Shown: positions 6,226 to 18,222 of the stretch, one piece after another
Numbering within the stretch: position 1 is the first letter of the stretch
Layout of the letters: every line of letters starts with the position of its first letter
IMG/VR virus record: IMGVR_UViG_3300013108_000188
DNA: 64,000 bases
Origin: a virus
Reading direction: 5' to 3' (one strand)
Translations under genes and position numbers: made by a program
Notes under the pieces: generated by a model
Seen by the model: the letters and a program-made list of their open reading frames with translations, nothing else
What the model was told of the DNA's origin: nothing
Database searches by the model: none

Positions 6226-6321
6226 ATTACACTAATACGAGCTATTTGTCAAGCACCTCTAAAAAAGGTATTTGGGGAAAAAAATGCCAAGGTAAATTCG
6301 CCCTTTAAAAAGGTAGAAAAC

Positions 6322-6777
6322 CTATTGGACTTTCATAAGTTCAATTACTAGAGGAAAATTCCTAGCTAATATAAACCCTATTACTATTGACCCACCTATA
6401 ATCAACCACTTCCATTTCTCTAGTACATTTACCCTATCTCCAAGTGTATTTTTGATAGACTTAATCTCGTTCATAATACGCTTTTCAGTAAGGTCCATAT
6501 TCTCTTTTAGAGACGCATATCTTGTTTCTGTCTCTACTTGTCTTTCCTTTAATTTAGAAAAGATAATTTCATCTAATTTTTCTGCTTGTGATAGTTTTTC
6601 TTCGTGTACTGCTAACATAGACTTAATACTTGAAGATATACCTGTTAACTTCTCAATCGCTGTATCTAGTCTTTTATGCACCATTGAGTTTTGTTCTAGT
6701 TCTGTTCTCAGCACCTCAATACTTGTCCTGTTGTCTGCGACTTCTCTCTCTAAAGAAGTTAGTGATTTTTCTGCCAT
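6322..6777 (-). CDS. Coiled-coil protein with C-terminal membrane anchor (XhlA-like)
   Basis: Heptad pattern followed by LEKWKWLIIGGSIVIGFIL. Confidence 0.6.
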   Translation of the reverse strand: MAEKSLTSLEREVADNRTSIEVLRTELEQNSMVHKRLDTAIEKLTGISSSIKSMLAVHEEKLSQAEKLDEIIFSKLKERQVETETRYASLKENMDLTEKRIMNEIKSIKNTLGDRVNVLEKWKWLIIGGSIVIGFILARNFPLVIELMKVQ

Positions 6778-6787
6778 TTATTTATCC

Positions 6788-8932
6788 CTAATCTGTCTGT
6801 ATTATTGTTATATTATTTTGGGTAGAGGAATTTCCCACATCAAGGTGTTGTGCTTCTTTATCTTGTAAAATTTGAATATCTGCCTCATTACTCGTTTCAG
6901 TTTTTACATAAGCTCTATGATTATCGTTATATCTATTTATAATTGTGTAGTCACCACTAGTAGAAGCAGTAGCGTCAAAATCATTATTTAATGTTGATAC
7001 TCTTCCTGTGGAAGTAGCACTTGAAGTCGCACCTGTAACCCCATCCGTTGTAGTTAAAGTTTGGGTTACATCTCCAGTAGTATAGTTTAAAGTTTCACCA
7101 CTAGCAGTTACCTGTGTTTCTGCACCAGTATTATCAACCCATTCAGTACCACAACTAGAATTAGCATTGTCCCAATAGTATCCATATTTTAAACACTCGT
7201 CTTCATTATAACTAGCTAATAATATTTCTAGTTCTGCGTCTATATCATAGTCATCTTCGTAAGCATATTCATCTTCCCAACTAGATTGGTCATCTTCATT
7301 ATTGTAATCGTAACCTGTGTACCACCAATCGTATAATGCGTCCCAATATGTATCCCAATCTGACCATTCCCAATCAGTTATGTAAGTCTTTTTTAAATCT
7401 TTCATTTTCCAAGGTTTAGGTTGGTCAGCACACATCTTATAGTTTGGCCAACTTCCACACCAACCATATAATTTACCAAATATCTTTTTAGCTTCTTTAG
7501 TCCAACTATCATTGGTTACTTTTAAAGTCCAGTCATCTTTATACCAATCGTTTAAGTAATCAACATAGTCTTGGTTACACCAATAGTCTTCGTAACCATT
7601 GTACTCACAATAGTTTTGTACCGTTAATGTAGGAGGACCTCCATTAGCAATGTATTCAGAATTGCTATAGTAAGCGTCATCTAAAGCAAAATCTTCCCAA
7701 GTATATCCTTCAACTACTTCTGCTTCTGTTTCTTCTTTAGTTTCTTCAACTACATCTTCCTCAACTACTTCTACATTCCAAGAAGCAAGACCATAGTCAG
7801 ATAAAATTTCGTTATATGCCTCATCATAAGCATCCCAATCAACTTCATCCCAATTTATATCATCCCAATTAACACTATCCCAACTACAATCTGAACAACC
7901 TATTGCGTCAAAATATGCTTGGTCCATTTCGGCATACATTTGTTTAGCGTCATCCCAATCCATAGTCTTTTCACCTTCAGCATCCCATACAGAAATCTGG
8001 TTATCTTCATCTATATAACCCCACTCTTTTAAATCATCTTCCCATTCATCATAGTAAGATGTATCTACTTCTGATTCTACAACTGCTGTATCTAAACCTT
8101 TTTCTTCTATTGATTGTGTTTCAATTATTGCGTCACCTTCACTAACAGACATATCTGTTTGAACAATTGTGTCATTGTTCTCTACTACATTTACTTCTTC
8201 ATTTATTATCGCCTCTTCCATTGCTTGTGCTTTTTCAACTTTAGTATCCATATCACCAAAAGATTTCTCAACATCTTCTTTTATATCTTCTTCAAATTTA
8301 TCTAACTCAATAATGTTTTGTTTATTAGTTTCTATTTTAGGAGGTGTAGGTGCTAAATCATTATTATAAACGGTTACGGAATTAAATGCGTTTGTAATTG
8401 TTTGAGAACCTGCGTCATTAGATACGGTTAACATACCTACTGAACCATCACTATCAGGCAACAAAGTAATTGTTGCTTTACCTGAAGTATCAACGGTACC
8501 TGAAAACGCTGTACCTTGTACCGTAATCGTAGCGTTACCAGCATTAATATTAACTTCACCACCTAATTCTGATACACTTCCAGATTCATATGTAAATGAA
8601 CCTACATTAACCGATATGTTCATTGCTAATTCTATTGGCACAACAGAAGTATCAAAAGCAAACTCATCAATAATTAATTCTGTATTTGGTCCCATTGTAA
8701 ATTTAGTTTTATCAACATATGATATTATCATACCACCATCTTCACCTGTTTGAAGAAAGTCGTTCATCTGTAATTCATAACCAGTAGAAGTGTTTTCAGT
8801 TGAACCGTCCCTTTCGTTCCAAGTCGTACCCATTGAACCTATGACTTCGCCAACTTTTGGACCTGTTATTTGAGCTATTGCACTAGTACAGAAAAGTACC
8901 AGGAAAGATACTATGAGAAATAGTTTTTGCAT
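6788..8932 (-). CDS. Exported FecR-domain protein with long acidic Trp/Tyr-rich region and curlin-like C-terminus
   Basis: Signal peptide; FecR-like segment LQTGEDG..D.TKFTMGPNT..GSF..ATITVQGTAF; ends NNITIIQTD. Confidence 0.75.
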   Translation of the reverse strand: MQKLFLIVSFLVLFCTSAIAQITGPKVGEVIGSMGTTWNERDGSTENTSTGYELQMNDFLQTGEDGGMIISYVDKTKFTMGPNTELIIDEFAFDTSVVPIELAMNISVNVGSFTYESGSVSELGGEVNINAGNATITVQGTAFSGTVDTSGKATITLLPDSDGSVGMLTVSNDAGSQTITNAFNSVTVYNNDLAPTPPKIETNKQNIIELDKFEEDIKEDVEKSFGDMDTKVEKAQAMEEAIINEEVNVVENNDTIVQTDMSVSEGDAIIETQSIEEKGLDTAVVESEVDTSYYDEWEDDLKEWGYIDEDNQISVWDAEGEKTMDWDDAKQMYAEMDQAYFDAIGCSDCSWDSVNWDDINWDEVDWDAYDEAYNEILSDYGLASWNVEVVEEDVVEETKEETEAEVVEGYTWEDFALDDAYYSNSEYIANGGPPTLTVQNYCEYNGYEDYWCNQDYVDYLNDWYKDDWTLKVTNDSWTKEAKKIFGKLYGWCGSWPNYKMCADQPKPWKMKDLKKTYITDWEWSDWDTYWDALYDWWYTGYDYNNEDDQSSWEDEYAYEDDYDIDAELEILLASYNEDECLKYGYYWDNANSSCGTEWVDNTGAETQVTASGETLNYTTGDVTQTLTTTDGVTGATSSATSTGRVSTLNNDFDATASTSGDYTIINRYNDNHRAYVKTETSNEADIQILQDKEAQHLDVGNSSTQNNITIIQTD

Positions 8933-10018
8933 TTAACACCCGCTATTGTTTAGCTGAACGGTTGTATCTGCTGTCTGATTGTTTCTATTGAAAGAGTATG
9001 TACAATTATCTGAACCATCTTGGTCAACAAGTAAAGTGTAATCGTAAATTGAATCACCACTTACGGTTAAGTTTGCTTCGTTTGAACCACCTGTTTGTTT
9101 TAATTCTACTACTGCGTTTGAAGTATAGATATAAACATATGCCTTATTGTTTCCACCACTTCCATAATATCTATAAACATTTGAGTTACCACTTGTAACC
9201 GTTTTCATATAATTATTATCGCCGTATTGAATCATCCTTATGTGAGAACCTACAGCGTCTGGATGAACATCTAATACATTTGAATCACCTATGACATCGT
9301 GTACTTGATAATTACTAGCACCCCAACTTGCCATATGAACCGTATTGGAGCTACCAATTATATAAACATCAATTGTAGCACCTTCGTCACCACTTGTATC
9401 TGCAAATTGTCCGTGTGATTCTACATTTGGACCAATCATAACATTTGCTTTACTTGAACCAACCATACCTGTTGAGTTAGTTGCACCATAAAACTCTACA
9501 TCATTTGAATCACCTGACATAAGAACATATAAGAAGTGTGAGTCACCTCTTAAATATGCCCAAAAATCATTTGAGTCACCTTTAATATCTAAATCTATGT
9601 GAGTATCTTGTATATCATCACTTGTATGTGAATCTAACTCTACTATGTTTGAGTTACCTGTAATATCTATATCGTAATAGTGTCCATCTGCGCCTGTGTC
9701 ATCTAAATCAAGTCTTAATACATTTGAATCGCCTGTTGCAATGTAATCAAAGGTCATATTAGACCCATAAAAAGTGTCGTGGTTGGTATCTACAGCAACA
9801 TTATTATCGCCTAATTGTTTTATGATAAGTGTTAAGTTAGGACCATTAATTATAAAATTTGCTGAGGAAGAACCAAACTTATTACCTGAACCATCTTGTT
9901 TTATATAGATGGATCCTGCACTAGTTTGATTGTCTTGCTGAATATAAACAGAATTGCCAGCGAAACTATTAGTTAGTGTCGCTAGAAGAATCACTATTGC
10001 CATTACTATCTTTTTCAT
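8933..10018 (-). CDS. Curlin-like (CsgA/CsgB-like) repeat protein
   Basis: Signal peptide plus about 13 repeats of hydrophobic-x-Q/x-G-[DNS]-[SN]-N (IKQDGSGN, IKQLGDNN, MIQYGDNN, LKQTGGSN); adjacent to csgG. Confidence 0.75.
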   Translation of the reverse strand: MKKIVMAIVILLATLTNSFAGNSVYIQQDNQTSAGSIYIKQDGSGNKFGSSSANFIINGPNLTLIIKQLGDNNVAVDTNHDTFYGSNMTFDYIATGDSNVLRLDLDDTGADGHYYDIDITGNSNIVELDSHTSDDIQDTHIDLDIKGDSNDFWAYLRGDSHFLYVLMSGDSNDVEFYGATNSTGMVGSSKANVMIGPNVESHGQFADTSGDEGATIDVYIIGSSNTVHMASWGASNYQVHDVIGDSNVLDVHPDAVGSHIRMIQYGDNNYMKTVTSGNSNVYRYYGSGGNNKAYVYIYTSNAVVELKQTGGSNEANLTVSGDSIYDYTLLVDQDGSDNCTYSFNRNNQTADTTVQLNNSGC

Positions 10019-11081
10019 CTGACTTGTTCTCCTGTTCTGTATGTTTGTCTACTTCGTCCCAATCTTTTTCATCTACGAGTTTTGTACACTCTTCTGATAC
10101 TTTACCAGAAGCATTAGCGTTTTTCTCGCATTCCATTTTAATTTTTATATCTCTTTTTCTTGCTTCTTTTTCTTCTTCTTTTTGTTTAAGATAGTCTTCG
10201 TATGTTTTCTCAACTTTTTCTTCACCTATCTCTACGGTAATTGGTGTTCCGTCATACTTATCTAAAGCGTGACCATCTTCTACATAATCTTTAATTTCTG
10301 GCACTATTGTTTCATCAATTTCCCATAAACCTTTTTTAGCACCTTCATTAATTAAATCTACTACACCTTTTTCTATTGCTTTTCTTACTGCATAGGTAAC
10401 TGGTTCGTTTCTTGCCACTCCCATTTCAATCTCTACTAACATTGTATCTGTATCTAGGTATTTAAATACATCTGCACCTGTTTCGCCTGAAAGTATAGTC
10501 TTTTCAACGGTTGTAGTTATTACTACTTCACCACTTTGTACATTAACTAATCTTAATATAATAGTAACCACATCTTGTCTGTATTGTTTGTGTGCTTGAA
10601 TACCTAATATTCTTGCACCAACACCACCAGATTTAGTATCACTATCATATCCTACTATACCACCTGTGATATATGCACCTGCGAATAGTAATGGTGGTAA
10701 AGGTTCTGCACCTTCACCATTTACTTGTTGTCTTGTAGACCTTATTAATTTTCTCTCTTGTAATAGACTTGGTAGACTTGCTCTTTCAACAACTCTAAAC
10801 CATTTGCCATCACCTGCGTCTTGTAATGCTTTAATTAATAATTGATATGACCCTTGCGTTACCGCTGTACTCATTGACGCAAAAGAACCACCTGGTTTCT
10901 TTTGTCCTGTCATATCTAAAAAATCATACACAGCAATTACTACTGGTTCACCTTTTGGCGAATTAATTTCTGTCAATCCTTTATATGATACCGTTTGAGT
11001 TCTTACATCAAAATCTGATTTTGTACTCGCACAACTACCCAAAAAGAGTGTAAGCAATAACAAAGATATAATTCTTAACAT
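9969..11081 (-). CDS. csgG: Curli secretion pore lipoprotein CsgG
   Basis: Lipobox LGSC; AVYDFLDMTGQKK, STAVTQG, WFRVVER, LLQERKLIR, GGIVGYD, NEPV. Confidence 0.93.
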   Translation of the reverse strand: MLRIISLLLLTLFLGSCASTKSDFDVRTQTVSYKGLTEINSPKGEPVVIAVYDFLDMTGQKKPGGSFASMSTAVTQGSYQLLIKALQDAGDGKWFRVVERASLPSLLQERKLIRSTRQQVNGEGAEPLPPLLFAGAYITGGIVGYDSDTKSGGVGARILGIQAHKQYRQDVVTIILRLVNVQSGEVVITTTVEKTILSGETGADVFKYLDTDTMLVEIEMGVARNEPVTYAVRKAIEKGVVDLINEGAKKGLWEIDETIVPEIKDYVEDGHALDKYDGTPITVEIGEEKVEKTYEDYLKQKEEEKEARKRDIKIKMECEKNANASGKVSEECTKLVDEKDWDEVDKHTEQENKSDEKDSNGNSDSSSDTN

Positions 11082-11089
11082 ATTTTTTC

Positions 11090-11548
11090 CTACGAGTTAT
11101 CTTCTTTAGGTAAAGTATAAGTTGTTACCGTACCATCTGATTCTGTTACCGTTACCACTACATTACCTGTACCTGATGGTGTAGTCCAAGTGACCACTTC
11201 TCCACCAACTGGTGATGTAAATGTACCAGAGTCTTGTTGTAGACCATCTGTACCGAATACATTGTCCGTAATTTGTTTTGCCAGAGCAGTATAGAATCTA
11301 CTCTCTAAATTTGCTTTGAATTTAGCTATAGCAGTTGCCTTTGCGTCTGCTGTTGCTTTATCAGCTGCCGCTTTGTTCGCTGCCTTGATTGCGTCTTTTC
11401 TAGTTTTCTCAATGTTCTCTATTGTTAAATAATGTGAAGACTTTCCTTTACCTGAAAACGAAGGACTATCAAATTCAAATGTTAGTTCGCTTGAGTATGC
11501 ACTAGAGATAAAGACAAGTGTAAGTATAATACTTGTAATGAATCTCAT
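11090..11548 (-). CDS. csgF: Curli assembly component CsgF
   Basis: Signal peptide then SELTFEFDSPSFSG (CsgF N-terminal pattern); directly upstream of csgG. Confidence 0.85.
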   Translation of the reverse strand: MRFITSIILTLVFISSAYSSELTFEFDSPSFSGKGKSSHYLTIENIEKTRKDAIKAANKAAADKATADAKATAIAKFKANLESRFYTALAKQITDNVFGTDGLQQDSGTFTSPVGGEVVTWTTPSGTGNVVVTVTESDGTVTTYTLPKEDNS

Positions 11549-11571
11549 AATTCTCCTAATAATTGCTATAA

Positions 11572-11579
11572 TATTTATA
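11572..11579 (-). promoter_or_regulatory. T4-type late promoter TATAAATA for the csgF operon
   Basis: Exact TATAAATA on the minus strand about 25 nt upstream of csgF; gp55 is encoded in this window. Confidence 0.8.
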
Positions 11580-11603
11580 ATAAATAGTCAGACGAGAATT
11601 GAT

Positions 11604-13229
11604 ATGAATCAAATATTTACTACAAGATGGTTTGCTTGTCTCACTTTTGTTATACTTCTTGGAATTTACTTGGTAAATCCAGTACTATTACAATCAACTA
11701 GACTAGCAACCTTTGATACTTACCAGAAATTTGGGACTCATTTAGATTCCAAATCTTTAGTCCTATTGGATATTTCAGACAAAGCACTTAAAAAGAACGG
11801 ACAATGGCCTTGGAAAAGAGATACACTTGGTCGCACTATAATTAATGCGTATAAAAATGGTGCCGCTCTAGTAGTATTACAAGTAGTCTTTCCTCATAAA
11901 GATAGACTAGGTGGTGATGAAATGTTTTTAAAGATGATACAAAAATATCCTGTCATACTAACTGAAACAAATGAAGTTAAAAATCTTATCAGTATATCCA
12001 GAAGAGCATTAGCAATAGGTAATGTATCTGTACCTGTTGATATAGATGGTACTATAAGAAAACTACCTCTGGATAAATCAATACCTGAAGTCGTATTAAA
12101 AGTAATAAAATTTCCTACACCTGAAGTAGATAATATTTGGTTAGATTTTAGACATCATATTCCTAGAGTAGATTTTACAGATAAAGATTGGTCATCTATG
12201 AAAGGTAAAATAGTTTTCATAGGTACTACATTTAAAGGTTCTACTTTTGCATTAACTCCAAATGGTTTAAAAAACACACACGAAATTATGGCAGTTAGTA
12301 CAGAAACTTTATTGTCTGGTAAATATATTAGTAGACCACATTGGTTATCTAGTTTAGAATTTTTTTATATAATAATAGGTTGTGTAATACTATTGTTTTT
12401 TATTCCTAAATTAGGTGTATTATCTTCTGCATTAATGTATGCTGGTTACTCTATACCTATCGCACTAGGAAGTATATATCTATGGACACAAAATTTATAT
12501 CTAACTGATTGGTTAAGTCCATTAGTAATAGGTACTTTAGTTTCAGGTCATTTAATATACAATAATTTTGCTAGAGAAAATAGATTGAAACTACAAATTA
12601 AAAAACAATTTGAACATTATCTAGCACCTCAAATGGTTAAAAAATTACAACAAAATCCATCACTATTAAAACTAGGTGGAGAGAGAAAAGAAATGACATT
12701 TTTGTTTTCTGATATAAGAGGTTTTACTCCTATAACTGAATCAATGAAAGGCGAACCAGAAAAGGTTGCTAAGTATGTTAATAAGTTTCTTACTGCAATG
12801 ACAAGTATAATACTTAAAAATGGTGGCACTATTGATAAGTATATGGGTGATTGTATAATGGCATTTTGGAATGCACCACTTGATAATCCAGAACATAAAA
12901 GACTAGCAATATTATCTGCGTATCAAATGAGAAGAACCGTTAGAGAAATGAATAAGAGTGGAGAGTTTAACCCACCTTTAAATATTGGTATAGGTATCAA
13001 TACAGGCGATTGTCTTGTAGGTAATATGGGTAGTGAACAAAGGTTTGACTATTCTGTTATCGGTGACGCTGTTAATCTTGCAAGTAGATTAGAAGGTCAA
13101 AGTAAAGAATTCAATACAACTATTGTAATATCAGAAAATAGTATCGCTGGAGATTTGCCGTTCTATAAACTTGGTAAAGTTAAAGTAAAAGGTAAAGAAG
13201 AAAAGATTAATTGTTATTCTATTAAGTAA
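11604..13229 (+). CDS. CHASE2-domain membrane class III adenylate cyclase
   Basis: TM helix, CHASE2 motifs (GQWPWKR, DIDGTIR, GKIVFIG), 3 TM helices, then cyclase motifs FSDIRGFT, IDKYMGDCIMAFW, GINTG, RFDYSVIGDAVNLASRLE, VKGK; start moved to MNQIF to avoid overlap with csgF. Confidence 0.93.
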   Translation: MNQIFTTRWFACLTFVILLGIYLVNPVLLQSTRLATFDTYQKFGTHLDSKSLVLLDISDKALKKNGQWPWKRDTLGRTIINAYKNGAALVVLQVVFPHKDRLGGDEMFLKMIQKYPVILTETNEVKNLISISRRALAIGNVSVPVDIDGTIRKLPLDKSIPEVVLKVIKFPTPEVDNIWLDFRHHIPRVDFTDKDWSSMKGKIVFIGTTFKGSTFALTPNGLKNTHEIMAVSTETLLSGKYISRPHWLSSLEFFYIIIGCVILLFFIPKLGVLSSALMYAGYSIPIALGSIYLWTQNLYLTDWLSPLVIGTLVSGHLIYNNFARENRLKLQIKKQFEHYLAPQMVKKLQQNPSLLKLGGERKEMTFLFSDIRGFTPITESMKGEPEKVAKYVNKFLTAMTSIILKNGGTIDKYMGDCIMAFWNAPLDNPEHKRLAILSAYQMRRTVREMNKSGEFNPPLNIGIGINTGDCLVGNMGSEQRFDYSVIGDAVNLASRLEGQSKEFNTTIVISENSIAGDLPFYKLGKVKVKGKEEKINCYSIK

Positions 13230-13391
13230 TTAATCATAGCTAATCAACACAAATTTAATCAATGCTACGAAAATTATAAATGTTGTGATTGATATTTTTG
13301 TATATATTGCTATGAAATTTCCTAGTCTGAAAGACCAGTATATAACTGCCCATAATATAATTAAATTTATTAATAATAAATGTGTATTCAT
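13230..13391 (-). CDS. 53-aa membrane protein (2 TM)
   Basis: Manual translation MNTHLLLINLIILWAVIYWSFRLGNFIAIYTKISITTFIIFVALIKFVLISYD. Confidence 0.5.
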   Translation of the reverse strand: MNTHLLLINLIILWAVIYWSFRLGNFIAIYTKISITTFIIFVALIKFVLISYD

Positions 13392-13408
13392 CTGTCTTTA
13401 AACAGATA

Positions 13409-13573
13409 TTACTTTTTATCTGTCAATTTGTTTATAAGTTCAAAAGCTACTTTAACTTTTTCTTCTAACACTTTTATTCTATAATGTGATTGTGCTAAGG
13501 TTACTATTAAAATGATAAATGCCACAAACATTGGCCACAATCTACTTATCATTAATACTAAATCTGCGTCCAT
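13409..13573 (-). CDS. 54-aa single-TM protein
   Basis: Manual translation MDADLVLMISRLWPMFVAFIILIVTLAQSHYRIKVLEEKVKVAFELINKLTDKK. Confidence 0.6.
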   Translation of the reverse strand: MDADLVLMISRLWPMFVAFIILIVTLAQSHYRIKVLEEKVKVAFELINKLTDKK

Positions 13574-13576
13574 AAA

Positions 13577-13942
13577 TTACTCTTTGTTCTTTGGTTTTTT
13601 CTCCTCTGGTTCATAATATTCTTTATATGCGTCAATCAAATCGTTGGTTGCTTTCATATGATTTCTAATTTGAGCAAAGTTTTTAGCGATTAATTGAAAA
13701 TCTTTATCTGTTAAACCAAATAACACAGGATCAATACCTTCATCTTCTAACTTCTGGAATACTTCAGCAGCATTATCAGAAGTAATGATAATCCATTTAA
13801 GTTTTTCTAATTGTGGTAAGGTTGGTTTTTGTAATTCTAATTTTTGTCTTTCAACTTCTGTTGTGAATATGTCAAGTTTTTTAATACTTGAGCATCCAGT
13901 TAAAAGGACTATGAATAAAATACTAATTACTATACGGTACAT
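13577..13942 (-). CDS. Lipoprotein, putative o-spanin
   Basis: Lipobox LLTGC; overlaps the 3' end of an upstream TM/coiled-coil gene. Confidence 0.6.
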   Translation of the reverse strand: MYRIVISILFIVLLTGCSSIKKLDIFTTEVERQKLELQKPTLPQLEKLKWIIITSDNAAEVFQKLEDEGIDPVLFGLTDKDFQLIAKNFAQIRNHMKATNDLIDAYKEYYEPEEKKPKNKE

Positions 13943-14399
13943 AATTTGGGTTCGCTATACTTGGACATTCTCTATTAATTTCAGATTTCTTTGTAGCTTT
14001 AATTTCTGCTTCTGTTAAGGCAGCGCCACCAGCAATTTCAACACAACGCATAACATTATCGCTACCTCTATTGATTATTTTCTGTATGACTTTCGTTTTT
14101 TCTAATGCAAGTTTACCAAAGTCTCTTCCACCTTTAGTAAATCTCTTGTCTAAATCTTGTAAATCCTTTTGAAGTTTATTCATAAGAGTATTCATCTTAT
14201 TATTTGCTTCAAGGATTTTACCAAAGTCTTCTTTTTGTTGGGCTATAACTTTCTTTTGACCTTCAACGGCAGCTTCTAACTTAACTTGATTAGCTTTTAA
14301 AATTGCATTGTCCTTCTGCAATTTCATAACATAGAGACCTGCACCTGCAAGTCCACTAATCATTATTACAACCATTGCCATTTTCATATAACCAAACAT
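13923..14399 (-). CDS. Putative i-spanin
   Basis: N-terminal TM helix, long coiled coil, two Cys near the C-terminus. Confidence 0.6.
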   Translation of the reverse strand: MFGYMKMAMVVIMISGLAGAGLYVMKLQKDNAILKANQVKLEAAVEGQKKVIAQQKEDFGKILEANNKMNTLMNKLQKDLQDLDKRFTKGGRDFGKLALEKTKVIQKIINRGSDNVMRCVEIAGGAALTEAEIKATKKSEINRECPSIANPNYVPYSN

Positions 14400-14408
14400 A
14401 AGTTTACT

Positions 14409-14516
14409 CTACTTCCAGAATTTTAATTTTTTAACTAAACCCGCTAGGTCTTCAAACTTCTCATTAACATACCAACCTAAAGCGAATCCTATAATAAGTC
14501 CTATTGTTAAAAACAT
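14409..14516 (-). CDS. 35-aa membrane peptide
   Basis: MFLTIGLIIGFALGWYVNEKFEDLAGLVKKLKFWK fills the intergenic gap. Confidence 0.55.
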   Translation of the reverse strand: MFLTIGLIIGFALGWYVNEKFEDLAGLVKKLKFWK

Positions 14517-14788
14517 TATTTCTTCCTTCCTTTAAGATTGACCAGCTCTAATTTCATTTTAGCCACCTGGTCTTCTAGTTTATTTATCTTCGCACTTAAC
14601 GATGGAAACTTCTTAATTAGTTTCTCTTCCTTCGTTAATACATCTAAATTATATCTTTTAGCTGCCCAATTATAACATTGGTCTACCTTCTTATAAAACC
14701 AATGTCCCATTTTTGTTTTTTTAAACCACGCATTGGTACTTTGACCAATGATAGCACCCATACAGGATTTTACTATAAAGAACCACAT
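14516..14788 (-). CDS. Hypothetical protein
   Basis: Likely start MWFFIVK right after the upstream stop codon. Confidence 0.6.
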   Translation of the reverse strand: MWFFIVKSCMGAIIGQSTNAWFKKTKMGHWFYKKVDQCYNWAAKRYNLDVLTKEEKLIKKFPSLSAKINKLEDQVAKMKLELVNLKGRKK

Positions 14789-14789
14789 A

Positions 14790-15272
14790 TTATTTCTTTG
14801 GTTTTGCTCCTCTTGGTGCCGAGCTATTAATTGCCCAACGGCCGAACATTCTAACTGCGTAATAGGCAGATAAAATTTTAAATTTTGAGACAGAAGGTTC
14901 AGCATATTCCATACCTTGTCTGAATATGTTATCTGCTATTGCTCTATATTCTTCTCTCTCACTTTTACTTTTAATAGTACCTTCTTTAAATGCACCATTA
15001 ATTTTTTCATAAAGTATATCGTGTACTACTGCCGCTCTTGCAACATCAAACGGAGCTATTACTGCCCAAGCTATTCTTGGTACACTAGCTAAATCTGTGA
15101 TGTATCCAGCAGGTACGGTAACTTCGCCATTATCTTTAACTGCAACTCCACATCTTGCTAATTTACTTATCTCTACTTCGTTTAAATCTGCTACGAATTT
15201 TAACGCATTATTTAATACCCAATTTCTTGGTGGTAAAAATATAGCGTCAAGCAGTCCATTAAATCTACTCAT
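14790..15272 (-). CDS. DUF1353-like protein
   Basis: VPAGYITDLASVP, AAVVHDILY, AD..F, AVRMFG. Confidence 0.8.
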   Translation of the reverse strand: MSRFNGLLDAIFLPPRNWVLNNALKFVADLNEVEISKLARCGVAVKDNGEVTVPAGYITDLASVPRIAWAVIAPFDVARAAVVHDILYEKINGAFKEGTIKSKSEREEYRAIADNIFRQGMEYAEPSVSKFKILSAYYAVRMFGRWAINSSAPRGAKPKK

Positions 15273-15279
15273 ATTTGTC

Positions 15280-15975
15280 CTATGGTTTCCTATCTTTTAG
15301 ATTCTGTTTAAATTTCTTATCGAATCTTTTAATTTTTCTATCCAAAACTTTAGCTTTAAGTCTGATAGAAATTTCTTTTTTTAAAGTTGGATCTGTTTGA
15401 GAAACTAATCCTACAGACCTCATTGTTCTATGTCTACCTTTAGGTGGTGTATCACCTAGAGCAGCAATAGGGTGCATTGCACCATAACTTCCACTACCTA
15501 TATTAAAAGCACCAAATTCTTTTAACCCAGCTTTTTCTAATACAGATTTCTTAACAGGTTCTTCTACAAATTCTATTTCATTTTTCCCATAAGATTTTTC
15601 ATCTACTATAACATCTATCTTATCCATTTGGTCTAGTATCTGATTTAAAAGAACACTATTAGTTTCTTTGTTTTCTTTGACCGTAGTACCAAGTCTTGTC
15701 ATAATTTCTTTTTTCTTTTTCTTATCTTGTACTGCGTCTGGTGGCATAGATACACCACCTCCTGCAACTGAATTAACAGGTGCGTCTTCTATTTGAAAAC
15801 CTAATTTCTTTTTTTCTTTTTCATAAGCGTCTGCGTCTGCTTTAGTATGAAATATAACCTGTACGGTATTTTGACCTGGTCTTTTCATCCGTACTATATA
15901 TTTACCACCGACAACTTTCGCTTCGTTCTTCTTATCTTTTAAGTACTTCATCAATATCTCTTTAACTGATGGCAT
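15280..15975 (-). CDS. Hypothetical protein (possible internal head protein)
   Basis: Lys-rich ORF with EDAPVNSV..GGV motif. Confidence 0.6.
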   Translation of the reverse strand: MPSVKEILMKYLKDKKNEAKVVGGKYIVRMKRPGQNTVQVIFHTKADADAYEKEKKKLGFQIEDAPVNSVAGGGVSMPPDAVQDKKKKKEIMTRLGTTVKENKETNSVLLNQILDQMDKIDVIVDEKSYGKNEIEFVEEPVKKSVLEKAGLKEFGAFNIGSGSYGAMHPIAALGDTPPKGRHRTMRSVGLVSQTDPTLKKEISIRLKAKVLDRKIKRFDKKFKQNLKDRKP

Positions 15976-16537
15976 TTAAATAATCTCCTGGGACTAATCG
16001 TCCATTTATATTATATATGTCCATACCTAACGCTGTAGTATATGGTTTCGTGTCCTCGTTGCATTGTACTATCGTTCCTTTCGGAAGAAAGTTATCTCCA
16101 TCAAATAAGTCGGACTTCAAATCATACTTACCTGATTTTAAAACTCTTTCATTAAAGTATTCTTCATTAAGAGTTTCAGTATAGTTAAATTCATCTATAC
16201 TTTTTAAATATTTATAGCAAGTTCGTTCTATATTCTTACCGTGTTCACTATAAAAATCTTTATCTTCTTTTAAAAGTAATCCTAATGCAACTGCAAAAGA
16301 ACCTAACTTACTACCTAGACCAACTTTACCTAGTATTCGTTTCATATTAAATACGAATCTATGCAACATAGTATAAGATGATTTTTCTTTACTAGTTTTT
16401 AATAGTCTATACGGTTTTAGCACTTTACCTTTATCGTCTATAATACCTGTCTTAAACGCTTCGTGGTTTTTAAATGGAGTAACCAATAATTTAATTACTC
16501 TATATGCTATTAATAAGTCTACTGCTCTACTTGCCAT
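15962..16537 (-). CDS. Conserved T4-like phage protein
   Basis: YRVIKLLVTPF..AFKTGIIDDKG..YT.LHRFVFNMKR, typical of marine T4-like phages. Confidence 0.7.
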   Translation of the reverse strand: MASRAVDLLIAYRVIKLLVTPFKNHEAFKTGIIDDKGKVLKPYRLLKTSKEKSSYTMLHRFVFNMKRILGKVGLGSKLGSFAVALGLLLKEDKDFYSEHGKNIERTCYKYLKSIDEFNYTETLNEEYFNERVLKSGKYDLKSDLFDGDNFLPKGTIVQCNEDTKPYTTALGMDIYNINGRLVPGDYLNAIS

Positions 16538-16899
16538 TATAAGTTCCTTAATTCTAATTTAATGTATTCGTCTTCCGTCAGATTTTCAAGTTCTTTCGGA
16601 TACAAATAGTTTAAATAACTAAAAACAGACTTTAGTAAAGGCCAATACTTCGTGTCGTTTTTATATAACAACAAAGTAATACAGGCATCCACTCCAAAGA
16701 CATTTTGTAGTACGACAATATGATTGATAACAAGTCTTATCTTTACTTCACCTGTTAATTCATATTTCCGAAACAATCTTTTGATGTATTTAAATCGCTT
16801 AATATCATCCCAAAATTCTTTTTCAGTTTCAAAAGTTGGATTATCATAATGCTTTTGAGCATATAATAACCAATTATCTTCGGTTATCTGTTTGAACAT
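16537..16899 (-). CDS. Conserved T4-like phage protein
   Basis: YDNP..EFWDDIKRFKYIKRLF..RLVINHIVVLQNVFG. Confidence 0.75.
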   Translation of the reverse strand: MFKQITEDNWLLYAQKHYDNPTFETEKEFWDDIKRFKYIKRLFRKYELTGEVKIRLVINHIVVLQNVFGVDACITLLLYKNDTKYWPLLKSVFSYLNYLYPKELENLTEDEYIKLELRNL

Positions 16900-16905
16900 T
16901 ATTGT

Positions 16906-17337
16906 CTACACTAATTTAGCGTAAACCTTTGATGAACCGTTAGACAATGTTTCGTATTTTACTTCTAATTTTAAATTATCAATACCAGGTCCATTATCTA
17001 CTACCACATCTTCAGGTTTAGTATCAGTTGTTTTTCCGTAAGTACCACCGAATTGTTTTACTTCACCAGTTACCGTTCCAGAAGTTCCTTCTAATTTCAT
17101 AGGACTAATATCTAATCCTATTCTCATTAGATTTTCTCTTAATTTGTCAACTGCAAATTGTGGTTTAATGTATTCCATATTTCCTACACTACCAACAAAA
17201 GCATTAACTCTATCTAAAACTCTTTGGTCTTTTAAATTCGCCGTACCTAAAGAACCGTCTTCAACTGCGTTTGAAGTTTGTACATTGACAGCACTTGCTG
17301 ACTTGTCTTCCTTTAAGTGTTCTCTAAAAGTTTTCAT
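16906..17337 (-). CDS. Hypothetical protein with capsid-targeting-like N-terminus
   Basis: Begins MKTFREHLKE. Confidence 0.65.
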   Translation of the reverse strand: MKTFREHLKEDKSASAVNVQTSNAVEDGSLGTANLKDQRVLDRVNAFVGSVGNMEYIKPQFAVDKLRENLMRIGLDISPMKLEGTSGTVTGEVKQFGGTYGKTTDTKPEDVVVDNGPGIDNLKLEVKYETLSNGSSKVYAKLV

Positions 17338-17439
17338 TTTTTCTCCTCTTTATCATTTATAGTTTGATTTGATTCTTCCTTATTTGGTTGAACCAAATCT
17401 TCCTCAAATTCTTCTAACTCTTTATCCGAGTTATCTATG

Positions 17440-17682
17440 TTATTTTTTATCTTCTCCATCTTCTTTTCCTTTAAGTTCTTGGTTAGCTTCCCTTAAAGTC
17501 AAATCGCTATCTGCTTTTCGCAAAAATTTTTCACAAACTTGTACTGCACCGTGTAAGGCATTTAGTTGTGATTTCGCACTTGCTAAATCTGTTTCTAATT
17601 TATTTACACTTTCAGTTAAAGCAGCTCGTTCTTTGTATAATTGATTAAATTCTTTCTCAATTATTGCTAATGATATTGCCAT
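17440..17682 (-). CDS. Small coiled-coil protein
   Basis: 80-aa ORF with GGAG RBS. Confidence 0.6.
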   Translation of the reverse strand: MAISLAIIEKEFNQLYKERAALTESVNKLETDLASAKSQLNALHGAVQVCEKFLRKADSDLTLREANQELKGKEDGEDKK

Positions 17683-17706
17683 TATAAACTCCTATAATAA
17701 TATTAA

Positions 17707-18156
17707 TTATGCTACTGCGTATCCGTGACCAGCGATTATATTCCATTTACTATTTTTGAATAATAATGTAACCGATTCTCCTTCTGCATTAAGAGTAATA
17801 GTTGAGTGTCCTCTTAAATTAGTTGGTGTGATTACGCAATTGTTTGCTCCAGTACCAATAGTTATTAATGTTTTAATTTGTCCATCAGAACCATCTGCTA
17901 GTGTTAATGCTGTTGCACCACCACTTTGGTCTACTTCTGATATTGCTGAGGTAACATTAGCCGCTGTACTAGATGAAGTTAATGCTTCACTAGCTTGGCC
18001 TAGTCCTATAAAACTAGGTATGTTATTGAAAACATTTTTTGCTGTTACCTTTTTATTTATTGGTGTGTTTGAAGGATCGTCAACAATGTGAAACAAATCC
18101 ACATCTGCTAACGCTGTGCCCAGGTCATCCAGGGCGGTGATTTTTTTGTCTGCCAT
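17707..18156 (-). CDS. Putative virion structural protein
   Basis: MADKKITAL start, Thr/Ala/Gly-rich beta body, late promoter upstream. Confidence 0.6.
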   Translation of the reverse strand: MADKKITALDDLGTALADVDLFHIVDDPSNTPINKKVTAKNVFNNIPSFIGLGQASEALTSSSTAANVTSAISEVDQSGGATALTLADGSDGQIKTLITIGTGANNCVITPTNLRGHSTITLNAEGESVTLLFKNSKWNIIAGHGYAVA

Positions 18157-18222
18157 TTTTTTCTCCTATAATTCCGATTTAACGGTAAACTACTCCGTAC
18201 ATCATATACGGACCATCTATAC

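Follow-up and report, generated by a model that had tools for sequence, protein, structure and literature searches.

What the curli genes of phages are for has been puzzling since 2013, when Pelagibacter phage HTVC008M was sequenced; as a block they rank with the most widespread auxiliary genes of SAR11 phages, and the phage host itself is without any curli genes (PMC7029224, PMC9599517). This question was examined for a viral DNA stretch of 64,000 nt (IMG/VR record IMGVR_UViG_3300013108_000188; the full 64 kb is called the window below), in which positions 6,788-13,229 encode homologues of the curli pore proteins CsgF and CsgG, an exported curlin-repeat protein, an exported protein headed by a FecR domain and a CHASE2 adenylate cyclase. 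From comparison with viral and bacterial relatives, the constant core of this block is predicted to consist of an exported protein with a FecR head, a channel in the outer membrane and the CHASE2 cyclase, and not of the curlin. The explanation that fits best, and to which we give an even chance of being right, is that the phage grafted a sensor of adhesin state onto the curli pore, with the FecR head as putative input of the CHASE2 domain.

The gene block as such is already published and not new, and the window adds another member. A curli operon of pelagimyophages, located in a hypervariable region, was described by Zaragoza-Solas et al. 2020 (PMC7029224), and a curli block was found in the OM43 phage Melnitz, for which a role in lysis was proposed and no clumping was seen (Buchholz et al. 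2022, PMC9004378). FecR and adenylate cyclase genes attached to a viral type VIII secretion system (T8SS) were reported for podo- and myoviruses by Wittmers et al. 2022 (PMC9599517), together with trees that point to Alphaproteobacteria and with metatranscriptome matches. CHASE2, type I secretion, a retention module and a TolC/HlyD variant are unmentioned in these three papers; the CHASE2 domain, the relation to the retention module and the TolC/HlyD variant add to the published descriptions of the block.

Four tightly packed genes lie on the minus strand in the order csgF (11090-11548; 152 aa; Pfam CsgF, 47.6 bits), csgG (9969-11081; 370 aa; Pfam CsgG, 169.9 bits), the gene of a CsgA/B-like curlin-repeat protein (8933-10018; 361 aa; Pfam Curlin_rpt, 29.4 bits at a cut-off of 20.7) and the gene of the FecR-headed protein (6788-8932; 714 aa; assigned by its FecR fold and by homology to the FecR protein of HTVC008M). 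An intergenic region of 55 nt (11549-11603) separates csgF from the divergent plus-strand gene of a class III adenylate cyclase (11604-13229; 541 aa; Pfam CHASE2, 95.1 bits, and Guanylate_cyc, 76.1 bits). The five-gene observation of an earlier note on this DNA was confirmed. Signal-peptide-like leaders were seen at the N-termini of all four minus-strand products, on a heuristic basis only, as export was judged from N-terminal hydrophobicity and from the lipobox-like L-G-S-C of CsgG alone. The gap of about 55 nt given in that note holds with the cyclase start at ATG 11604, where public gene calls place it and from which a protein identical to one of 541 aa in a public collection (P0001) is read; an alternative in-frame ATG at 11538 would create an 11-nt overlap with the start region of csgF on the opposite strand. 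It had also called the cyclase the only long plus-strand gene, and indeed the other plus-strand open reading frames (ORFs) of at least 100 aa in the 64 kb are shadows within minus-strand genes. The GC skew in the window changes sign at the cyclase only.

The identity of the block as the viral curli region of a pelagimyophage, with FecR and adenylate cyclase genes, is nearly certain. HTVC008M (KC465899) is the closest phage record to the window and encodes, all co-directional, CsgF, CsgG, a 'curlin-associated protein', FecR, a PA14 plus curlin-repeat protein and a CHASE2 cyclase. The window shares with the pelagiphage T8SS region the genes and their order (csgF, csgG, curlin-repeat, FecR, cyclase), the phage group and the position between replication and structural genes. 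In contrast to the HTVC008M-type region, the cyclase is inverted, resulting in a divergent layout, which is common in this subclade (16 of 21 loci); the FecR protein, at 714 aa, has double the length, with an acidic Trp/Tyr-rich insertion, the second PA14/curlin gene is lacking, the CHASE2 domain is shortened and CsgG carries a charged tail. A histidine kinase upstream of csgF was reported to be universal in the podovirus T8SS, whereas here the cyclase occupies the upstream position and no kinase domain was found in 18 neighbouring ORFs; the kinase was described for podoviruses and not for all myoviruses.

To what extent the cyclase belongs to the curli genes was judged from its neighbourhood in other viral genomes. 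At least 598 viral contigs encode relatives of the cyclase, and more than 8000 database proteins are related to it. The best 80 viral loci were taken, 49 of which had enough flanking sequence to be judged. The cyclase adjoined csgG/csgF in 45 of these and TolC-like/HlyD genes instead in four, while none had neither. Within the 45 curli loci it was co-directional in 32, divergent as in the window in 12 and convergent in one. When loci were anchored on CsgG, and a flank of 2.8 kb or more upstream and of 7 kb or more downstream was required, CsgF, FecR and cyclase were present in 21 of 21, arranged divergently in 16 and co-directionally in four, with two cyclases in the remaining one. A survey of co-occurrence and synteny, proposed in the earlier note, finds csgF, csgG, FecR and cyclase linked in viral loci anchored on CsgG (21/21) and the cyclase linked to the curli genes in those anchored on the cyclase (45/49); the linkage is far beyond chance and is repeated across hundreds of viral contigs. 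As the adjacency has been kept through inversion into three layouts, it argues for selection on the gene set and not for a frozen accident.

Viral loci with TolC-like/HlyD genes were inspected for the channel. In one of them (L041, 2519-11932) the co-directional genes encode a 1299-aa FecR plus cadherin protein that is without signal peptide, a TolC-like outer membrane efflux protein, a 250-aa protein of unknown function, a short protein of the HlyD family, another of 130 aa and, last, a CHASE2 cyclase; no ABC ATPase was seen in this 22-kb locus. The same TolC-like/HlyD module recurs in L050 (1010-6500), L067 and L071, and secretion genes of the TolC/HlyD type were detected in the phage loci L041, L050, L067 and L235. 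The last of these (7679-18211; also L231, L233 and L237) is from a close relative and harbors two CHASE2 cyclases, one with a short CHASE2 domain, divergent from the curli operon, and one with a long CHASE2 domain, co-directional with HlyD, the 250-aa unknown and the TolC-like protein and directly after the FecR gene. Each of the two cyclases appears to be matched to its own secretion module. The type of channel next to the cyclase, CsgG/CsgF or TolC-like, would thus be interchangeable, as far as gene content tells.

A different picture of the partners was obtained in bacteria. The 80 nearest relatives of the cyclase in bacteria belong almost exclusively to the Alphaproteobacteria (Bradyrhizobium, Thalassospira, Labrenzia and numerous metagenome-assembled genomes, MAGs), and none of the 80 loci has csgG or csgF within 10 kb of the cyclase. 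An ORF with a FecR domain lies near the cyclase in 38 of them (four Pfam-confirmed), which bears out, together with published loci (PMC5192318, PMC5498481), the statement in the earlier note that FecR genes often stand beside CHASE2 sensors in bacteria. By tblastn, a gene of the BTLCP (LapG) family was found in 24 and HlyD in 23 of the 80 loci; the window and all viral loci examined gave no BTLCP match (tblastn, phmmer). CsgG was absent from the entire genome in four bacteria with the FecR-cyclase pair. Conversely, CsgF was present in 7 of 401 sampled Alphaproteobacteria, and at none of these seven csgFG loci was FecR or cyclase encoded within 10 kb. Since the Alphaproteobacteria keep curli genes apart from the FecR-cyclase pair, the phage block is a chimera of two bacterial systems, put together in the phage.

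The bacterial loci further indicate what kind of system the pair may have come from, as the cyclase relatives adjoin FecR-headed RTX or cadherin adhesins, type I secretion system (T1SS) genes and a LapG-family protease. A MAG locus (L157, 2349-14659) encodes, in this order and with Pfam confirmation, a 1391-aa protein with a FecR domain at its N-terminus, RTX repeats and Ig domains, a T1SS ABC protein, HlyD, the CHASE2 cyclase, a metallo-β-lactamase-fold protein, a cyclic-nucleotide-binding protein and a Peptidase_C93 (BTLCP) protein. In Bradyrhizobium shewense (L084, 3074-12208) a BTLCP gene faces the gene of an 1803-aa protein directly ahead of the cyclase, in which Pfam detects FecR, laminin-G, cadherin, Big_9 and serralysin-C domains. 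Both loci look like a counterpart of the Lap adhesin system based on cyclic AMP (cAMP), and no paper linking LapG and CHASE2 came up in the literature collection searched. This gene content suggests that the phage took FecR protein and cyclase, as a sensor pair, from systems of adhesin secretion.

These data support in part the relay that the earlier note had drawn from surface curlin through the pore and periplasmic FecR to CHASE2 and cAMP. In favor of a relay, the genes travel together in three layouts, FecR and CHASE2 genes are neighbours in bacteria and the catalytic residues of the cyclase are complete; curli, however, is dispensable for the FecR-cyclase pair. The ordered chain does not hold as a conserved logic, because the pair persists without curli in bacteria (0/80 cyclase loci with csg) and in phages with TolC/HlyD. 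Independence of the cyclase from csg and FecR genes, which that note had named as counting against the relay, was not seen in viruses as far as a secretion module is concerned (0/49 without one), but was seen for csg itself, both in viruses (4/49 with TolC/HlyD) and in bacteria.

The FecR-headed protein was analyzed for features that could connect it to either system. Its own Pfam FecR match stays below threshold (18.8 versus 24); residues 1-315 are homologous to the HTVC008M FecR protein (blastp E 1e-17), which passes Pfam with 35.8 bits. The AlphaFold model has a predicted local distance difference test (pLDDT) score of 69 overall and 80-89 within domains, and shows a beta domain at residues 26-188. 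This N-terminal domain (8333-8863, minus strand; residues ~24-200 from structure and profile matches) has the fold of FecR/PupR cell-surface-signalling domains: it aligned with the C-terminal domain of PupR (6ovk_R, VIA) with Z 15.1 and a root-mean-square deviation (rmsd) of 2.8 over 140 residues, and with 4m0n (VIA) with Z 15.0; in Foldseek the head model gave a match with E 3e-5. Its first half (residues 24-121) aligned with 5ix9 (74 of 76 residues, rmsd 2.1, Foldseek TM 0.77) with Z 7.5, which lies in a range where a merely common arrangement is possible, so that the sequence match carries the weight. A profile of 40 phage FecR homologues found 5ix9 as the sole significant solved sequence (E 3.9e-4). 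The latter structure is the N-terminal cell-surface anchoring domain of a Marinomonas RTX adhesin and was the template from which LapA's retention module was modelled (10.1101/198937), a module that holds LapA within a TolC-like pore with the plug in the periplasm. Profile and predicted structure show a relationship between the modelled FecR head and the retention module plug of adhesins of the LapA/MpIBP type.

Toward the C-terminus, residues ~205-600 (7133-8320, minus strand) form the acidic Trp/Tyr-rich insertion, delimited by composition, model pLDDT and length classes. It is partly disordered and partly helical in the model, and is confined to this subclade, the FecR proteins of HTVC008M-type phages (357-404 aa) being without it. 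Alignments place a beta domain behind it (6791-7132, minus strand) that ends in I-x-I-x-Q (I708, I710, Q712); its last ~60 residues are conserved across the phage FecR proteins without exception, and the bacterial FecR partners do not have them. Pfam Curlin_rpt gave no match on six FecR-protein C-termini, and the tail, when compared with three families of phage curlins by hhalign, reached P 0.002-0.015 at probabilities of 3-12% (reversed controls 0.05-0.5). A model of the isolated domain (pLDDT 63) gave no fold match (Foldseek best E 0.26; VIA-wide best Z 4.7). An origin of the 714-aa form by fusion of FecR to the second curlin/PA14 protein was considered and rejected, because the extra length is an internal acidic insertion and the similarity to the HTVC008M PA14 plus curlin protein is insignificant (E 0.16).

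The FecR domain begins ~24 residues from the N-terminus, right after the signal-peptide-like leader. Phage head and FecR/PupR/FoxR regulators have the periplasmic fold in common, and an invariant Gly-Thr pair lies within the domain; G140-T141 is invariant among the 40 phage homologues, and in FoxR-type proteins a Gly-Thr pair is the site of self-cleavage. Unlike those regulators, the phage protein has neither a cytoplasmic anti-sigma domain nor a membrane anchor, and no gene of a TonB-dependent transducer or of an extracytoplasmic function (ECF) sigma factor lies nearby. Therefore, the protein does not count among the FecR-type regulators of iron transport, and the label 'iron regulator' does not apply.

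In the cyclase, the predicted periplasmic CHASE2 domain (11676-12359, plus strand; residues ~25-252) was delimited by alignment, Pfam and hydrophobic segments. The match covers profile positions 3-254 of 257, and hydrophobic segments at 6-24 and 256-274 bracket the domain. Two deletions shorten it relative to the other phage and bacterial homologues, and the Pfam score is 95 bits here, 134 in HTVC008M and 202 in the bacterial locus L157. The subclade with the shortened CHASE2 has a lengthened FecR protein and CsgG; because this is one lineage event, it is a mere hint of co-adaptation. The cytoplasmic linker and catalytic domain (12594-13226, plus strand) were located by alignments and by the nearest solved relatives, 6fht (E 1e-36) and CyaB of Pseudomonas aeruginosa (3r5g, E 4e-33), which are homodimeric bacterial cyclases. 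The metal-binding aspartates D370/D416, the adenine-specifying K412/D482 and the transition-state residues N491/R495 are invariant in alignments of 11 and 44 homologues, and the cyclase is predicted to be catalytically intact.

CsgF spans Pfam profile positions 3-132 of 132 behind its hydrophobic leader, and phmmer against solved structures found no PDB match. Its mature N-terminus bears a T-F-x-F-x-x-P-x-F-x-G motif, which resembles the pore-insertion peptide of E. coli CsgF. The core of CsgG (residues 8-257), with a lipoprotein-type leader and its lipobox-like L-G-S-C, matches E. coli CsgG (3x2r/6l7a) with E 7e-49. In the phmmer alignment the constriction residues Y51/N55/F56 of E. coli are replaced by G/S/M. 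Behind the core follows a charged Lys/Glu-rich extension of ~110 aa (residues ~258-370; 9969-10310) that is lacking in the CsgG of HTVC008M (280 aa); CsgG ORFs of relatives measure ~1.0 to 1.3 kb, the extension being variable in length. The curlin-repeat protein has 18 G-x-x-N turns and a signal-peptide-like N-terminus, and by blastp is related to the HTVC008M 'curlin-associated protein' (E 9e-12) and PA14 plus curlin protein (E 1e-7). Phage and bacterial curli have CsgG, CsgF and curlin-repeat homologues in common, and CsgC, CsgD and CsgE are lacking as in Alphaproteobacteria; in contrast to E. coli curli, the pore constriction is changed and FecR and cyclase genes are attached.

Expression signals were searched for around the block. 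An exact TATAAATA, the consensus of T4-type late promoters, lies within the divergent intergenic region at 11572-11579 on the minus strand, 24 nt 5' of the csgF ATG. The window contains seven exact copies (starting at 6934, 11572, 16209, 18223, 28127, 29544 and 45740), all on the minus (coding) strand, where shuffled sequences lead to an expectation of ~17, and the motif is thus depleted. Most copies sit shortly upstream of gene starts; the one at 6934-6941 is inside the 3' end of the FecR gene, ahead of the DUF7201 gene. The pattern fits T4-type late promoters with counter-selection elsewhere, as judged from motif positions. A scan of 6300-13700 for sigma-70 promoters and terminators gave sites that were fewer or no more than in shuffles. 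In four RNA libraries of marine or subsurface origin, csgF, csgG and the curlin gene are matched by short contigs with an identity of 99% or more, which indicates presence only; the cyclase was covered in one RNA run only, by short contigs whose coverage is uninformative on expression. The block is flanked by a ribonucleotide reductase (RNR), a primase-like gene and T4-type phage DUFs (Pfam), with the RNR/primase-like replication genes on one side and small phage genes on the other. The small flanking genes at 6322-6777, 14790-15272 and 16537-16899 belong to the unknown-function families DUF7201 (coiled coil), DUF1353 and DUF7207.

How FecR protein, channel and cyclase might work together can be compared with two characterized bacterial systems. 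The Lap systems (LapA/LapBCE/LapG/LapD of Pseudomonas fluorescens; MpIBP of Marinomonas primoryensis, 5ix9) have the N-terminal beta plug in common with the phage FecR protein, and in both an exported protein is paired with an outer-membrane channel and with an inner-membrane second-messenger protein that has a periplasmic domain. The phage channel CsgG/CsgF, in contrast, is not TolC-like, and no T1SS genes (ABC, HlyD, TolC-like) or LapG-like protease were found in the window (phmmer, Pfam); searches of its six frames by phmmer with bacterial cyclic-nucleotide-binding, BTLCP, ABC, HlyD and TolC-like queries gave no match, a weak negative. Since the phage enzyme makes cAMP, whereas Lap relies on binding of cyclic di-GMP (c-di-GMP), signalling would run outside-in and not inside-out. 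In Sinorhizobium meliloti, activation of the CHASE2 cyclases CyaD1, CyaD2 and CyaK needs the outer-membrane protein NsrA, and Clr is the receptor (PMC13001267, PMC5498481). These are likewise alphaproteobacterial CHASE2 class III cyclases, and a FecR-domain gene, smc02177, adjoins cyaD1. NsrA, however, has a beta-barrel structure and is unrelated to CsgG, the S. meliloti pathway responds to a plant protein, its cAMP receptor is known and smc02177 is not required for signal perception. The precedent of NsrA and CyaD1/CyaD2/CyaK shows that CHASE2 cyclases can be activated by way of a protein in the outer membrane (PMC13001267).

For the phage, the following sequence of events would result. Late in infection the CsgG/CsgF pore would be inserted into the SAR11 outer membrane. 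The FecR-headed protein would cross the inner membrane via Sec, and its folded head would be kept in the periplasm beneath the channel, while the long acidic stalk and the C-terminal domain might engage pore or fibre. The CHASE2 domain would then read the state of the head (present, pulled or released) and set cAMP synthesis accordingly. Several points weigh against this reading. The contact between FecR head and CHASE2 is one that we infer, and the adjacency of the genes could reflect only co-regulation or a shared location in the envelope. Because the FecR protein of the phage starts with a Sec-type leader and is without RTX repeats, a type I secretion signal and a protease partner of the LapG type, the analogy to retention is indirect. 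A link between FecR tail and curlin is unsupported, and no homology is claimed. CsgG normally takes unfolded curlin as substrate, which makes the FecR protein a putative cargo at most, and the changed constriction residues suggest that the pore may serve another use. Finally, no cyclic-nucleotide-binding protein was found in the window (Pfam; phmmer in six frames, a weak negative). What the earlier note had added, the sensing of superinfecting virions and the adjustment of lysis timing, is pure speculation.

Three other explanations have to be weighed. According to the published interpretation (Zaragoza-Solas 2020, Wittmers 2022) the block is a machine for curli-like amyloid fibres on infected cells, serving for example aggregation or 'sibling capture', and FecR and cyclase merely regulate production from inside, without FecR-CHASE2 contact and without outside-in sensing. 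All members of a minimal set are indeed present (pore, CsgF, curlin-repeat subunit), the block is globally abundant and a late promoter suits a structural product made ahead of lysis. Yet the FecR-cyclase pair persists where TolC/HlyD replaces curli and in csg-free bacteria, the block contains no transcription factor or cAMP receptor, and a FecR protein without anti-sigma domain or transmembrane anchor cannot act like that of E. coli; in addition, the related phage Melnitz caused no clumping (PMC9004378). We regard this explanation as unlikely.

The remaining two each start from a single component. If the cyclase were a tool of host take-over, it would flood the cell with cAMP for metabolic reprogramming or interference with nucleotide-based defence; CHASE2 and FecR would be an on-switch only and the curli genes unrelated cargo in a hypervariable island. 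The apparently intact active site, the rank of the cyclase as most conserved member of the block, its wide spread in viral contigs (at least 598) and database proteins (more than 8000) and the description of the region as hypervariable (PMC7029224) agree with this. Against it, none of the 49 informative viral loci lacks an adjacent outer-membrane secretion module; the adjacency outlasts inversion into three layouts, and both cyclases of L235 adjoin a module of their own. It is thus quite unlikely in our view. A pore for permeability or lysis timing, in which CsgG/CsgF would form a gated channel or act like a pinholin, with accessory roles for the remaining genes (Buchholz et al. 2022), would account for the altered constriction (Y51/N55/F56 to G/S/M), the extra charged CsgG tail and the absence of CsgE, and late expression would suit it, as proposed (PMC9004378). 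This is very unlikely, however, as the co-inherited curlin-repeat and FecR proteins and the cyclase are left unexplained, an outer-membrane pore cannot depolarise the inner membrane and a TolC/HlyD module can stand in for the curli genes.

Returning to the sensor grafted onto the curli pore, the comparison recasts the question that the phage curli genes raise: the constant partners of the cyclase would be the FecR-headed protein and an outer-membrane channel, and one type of channel can replace the other. The ancestors in bacteria resemble adhesin systems of the Lap type in which a cyclase stands where LapD would be. It is tempting to go further and to place phage block and bacterial relatives in one undescribed class of envelope sensors, a cAMP-based outside-in counterpart of Lap in which a FecR-fold plug in an interchangeable channel is read by CHASE2; we offer this tentatively, as a generalization that is rather improbable at present. 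To our knowledge, CHASE2 has been a domain without known ligand since 2003. This orphan domain now gains a concrete candidate ligand, and the phage block gains a mechanism that is testable in E. coli. If it is true, cAMP would tell the cytoplasm of the infected SAR11 cell about contact at its surface, the load of fibres or the occupancy of the channel.

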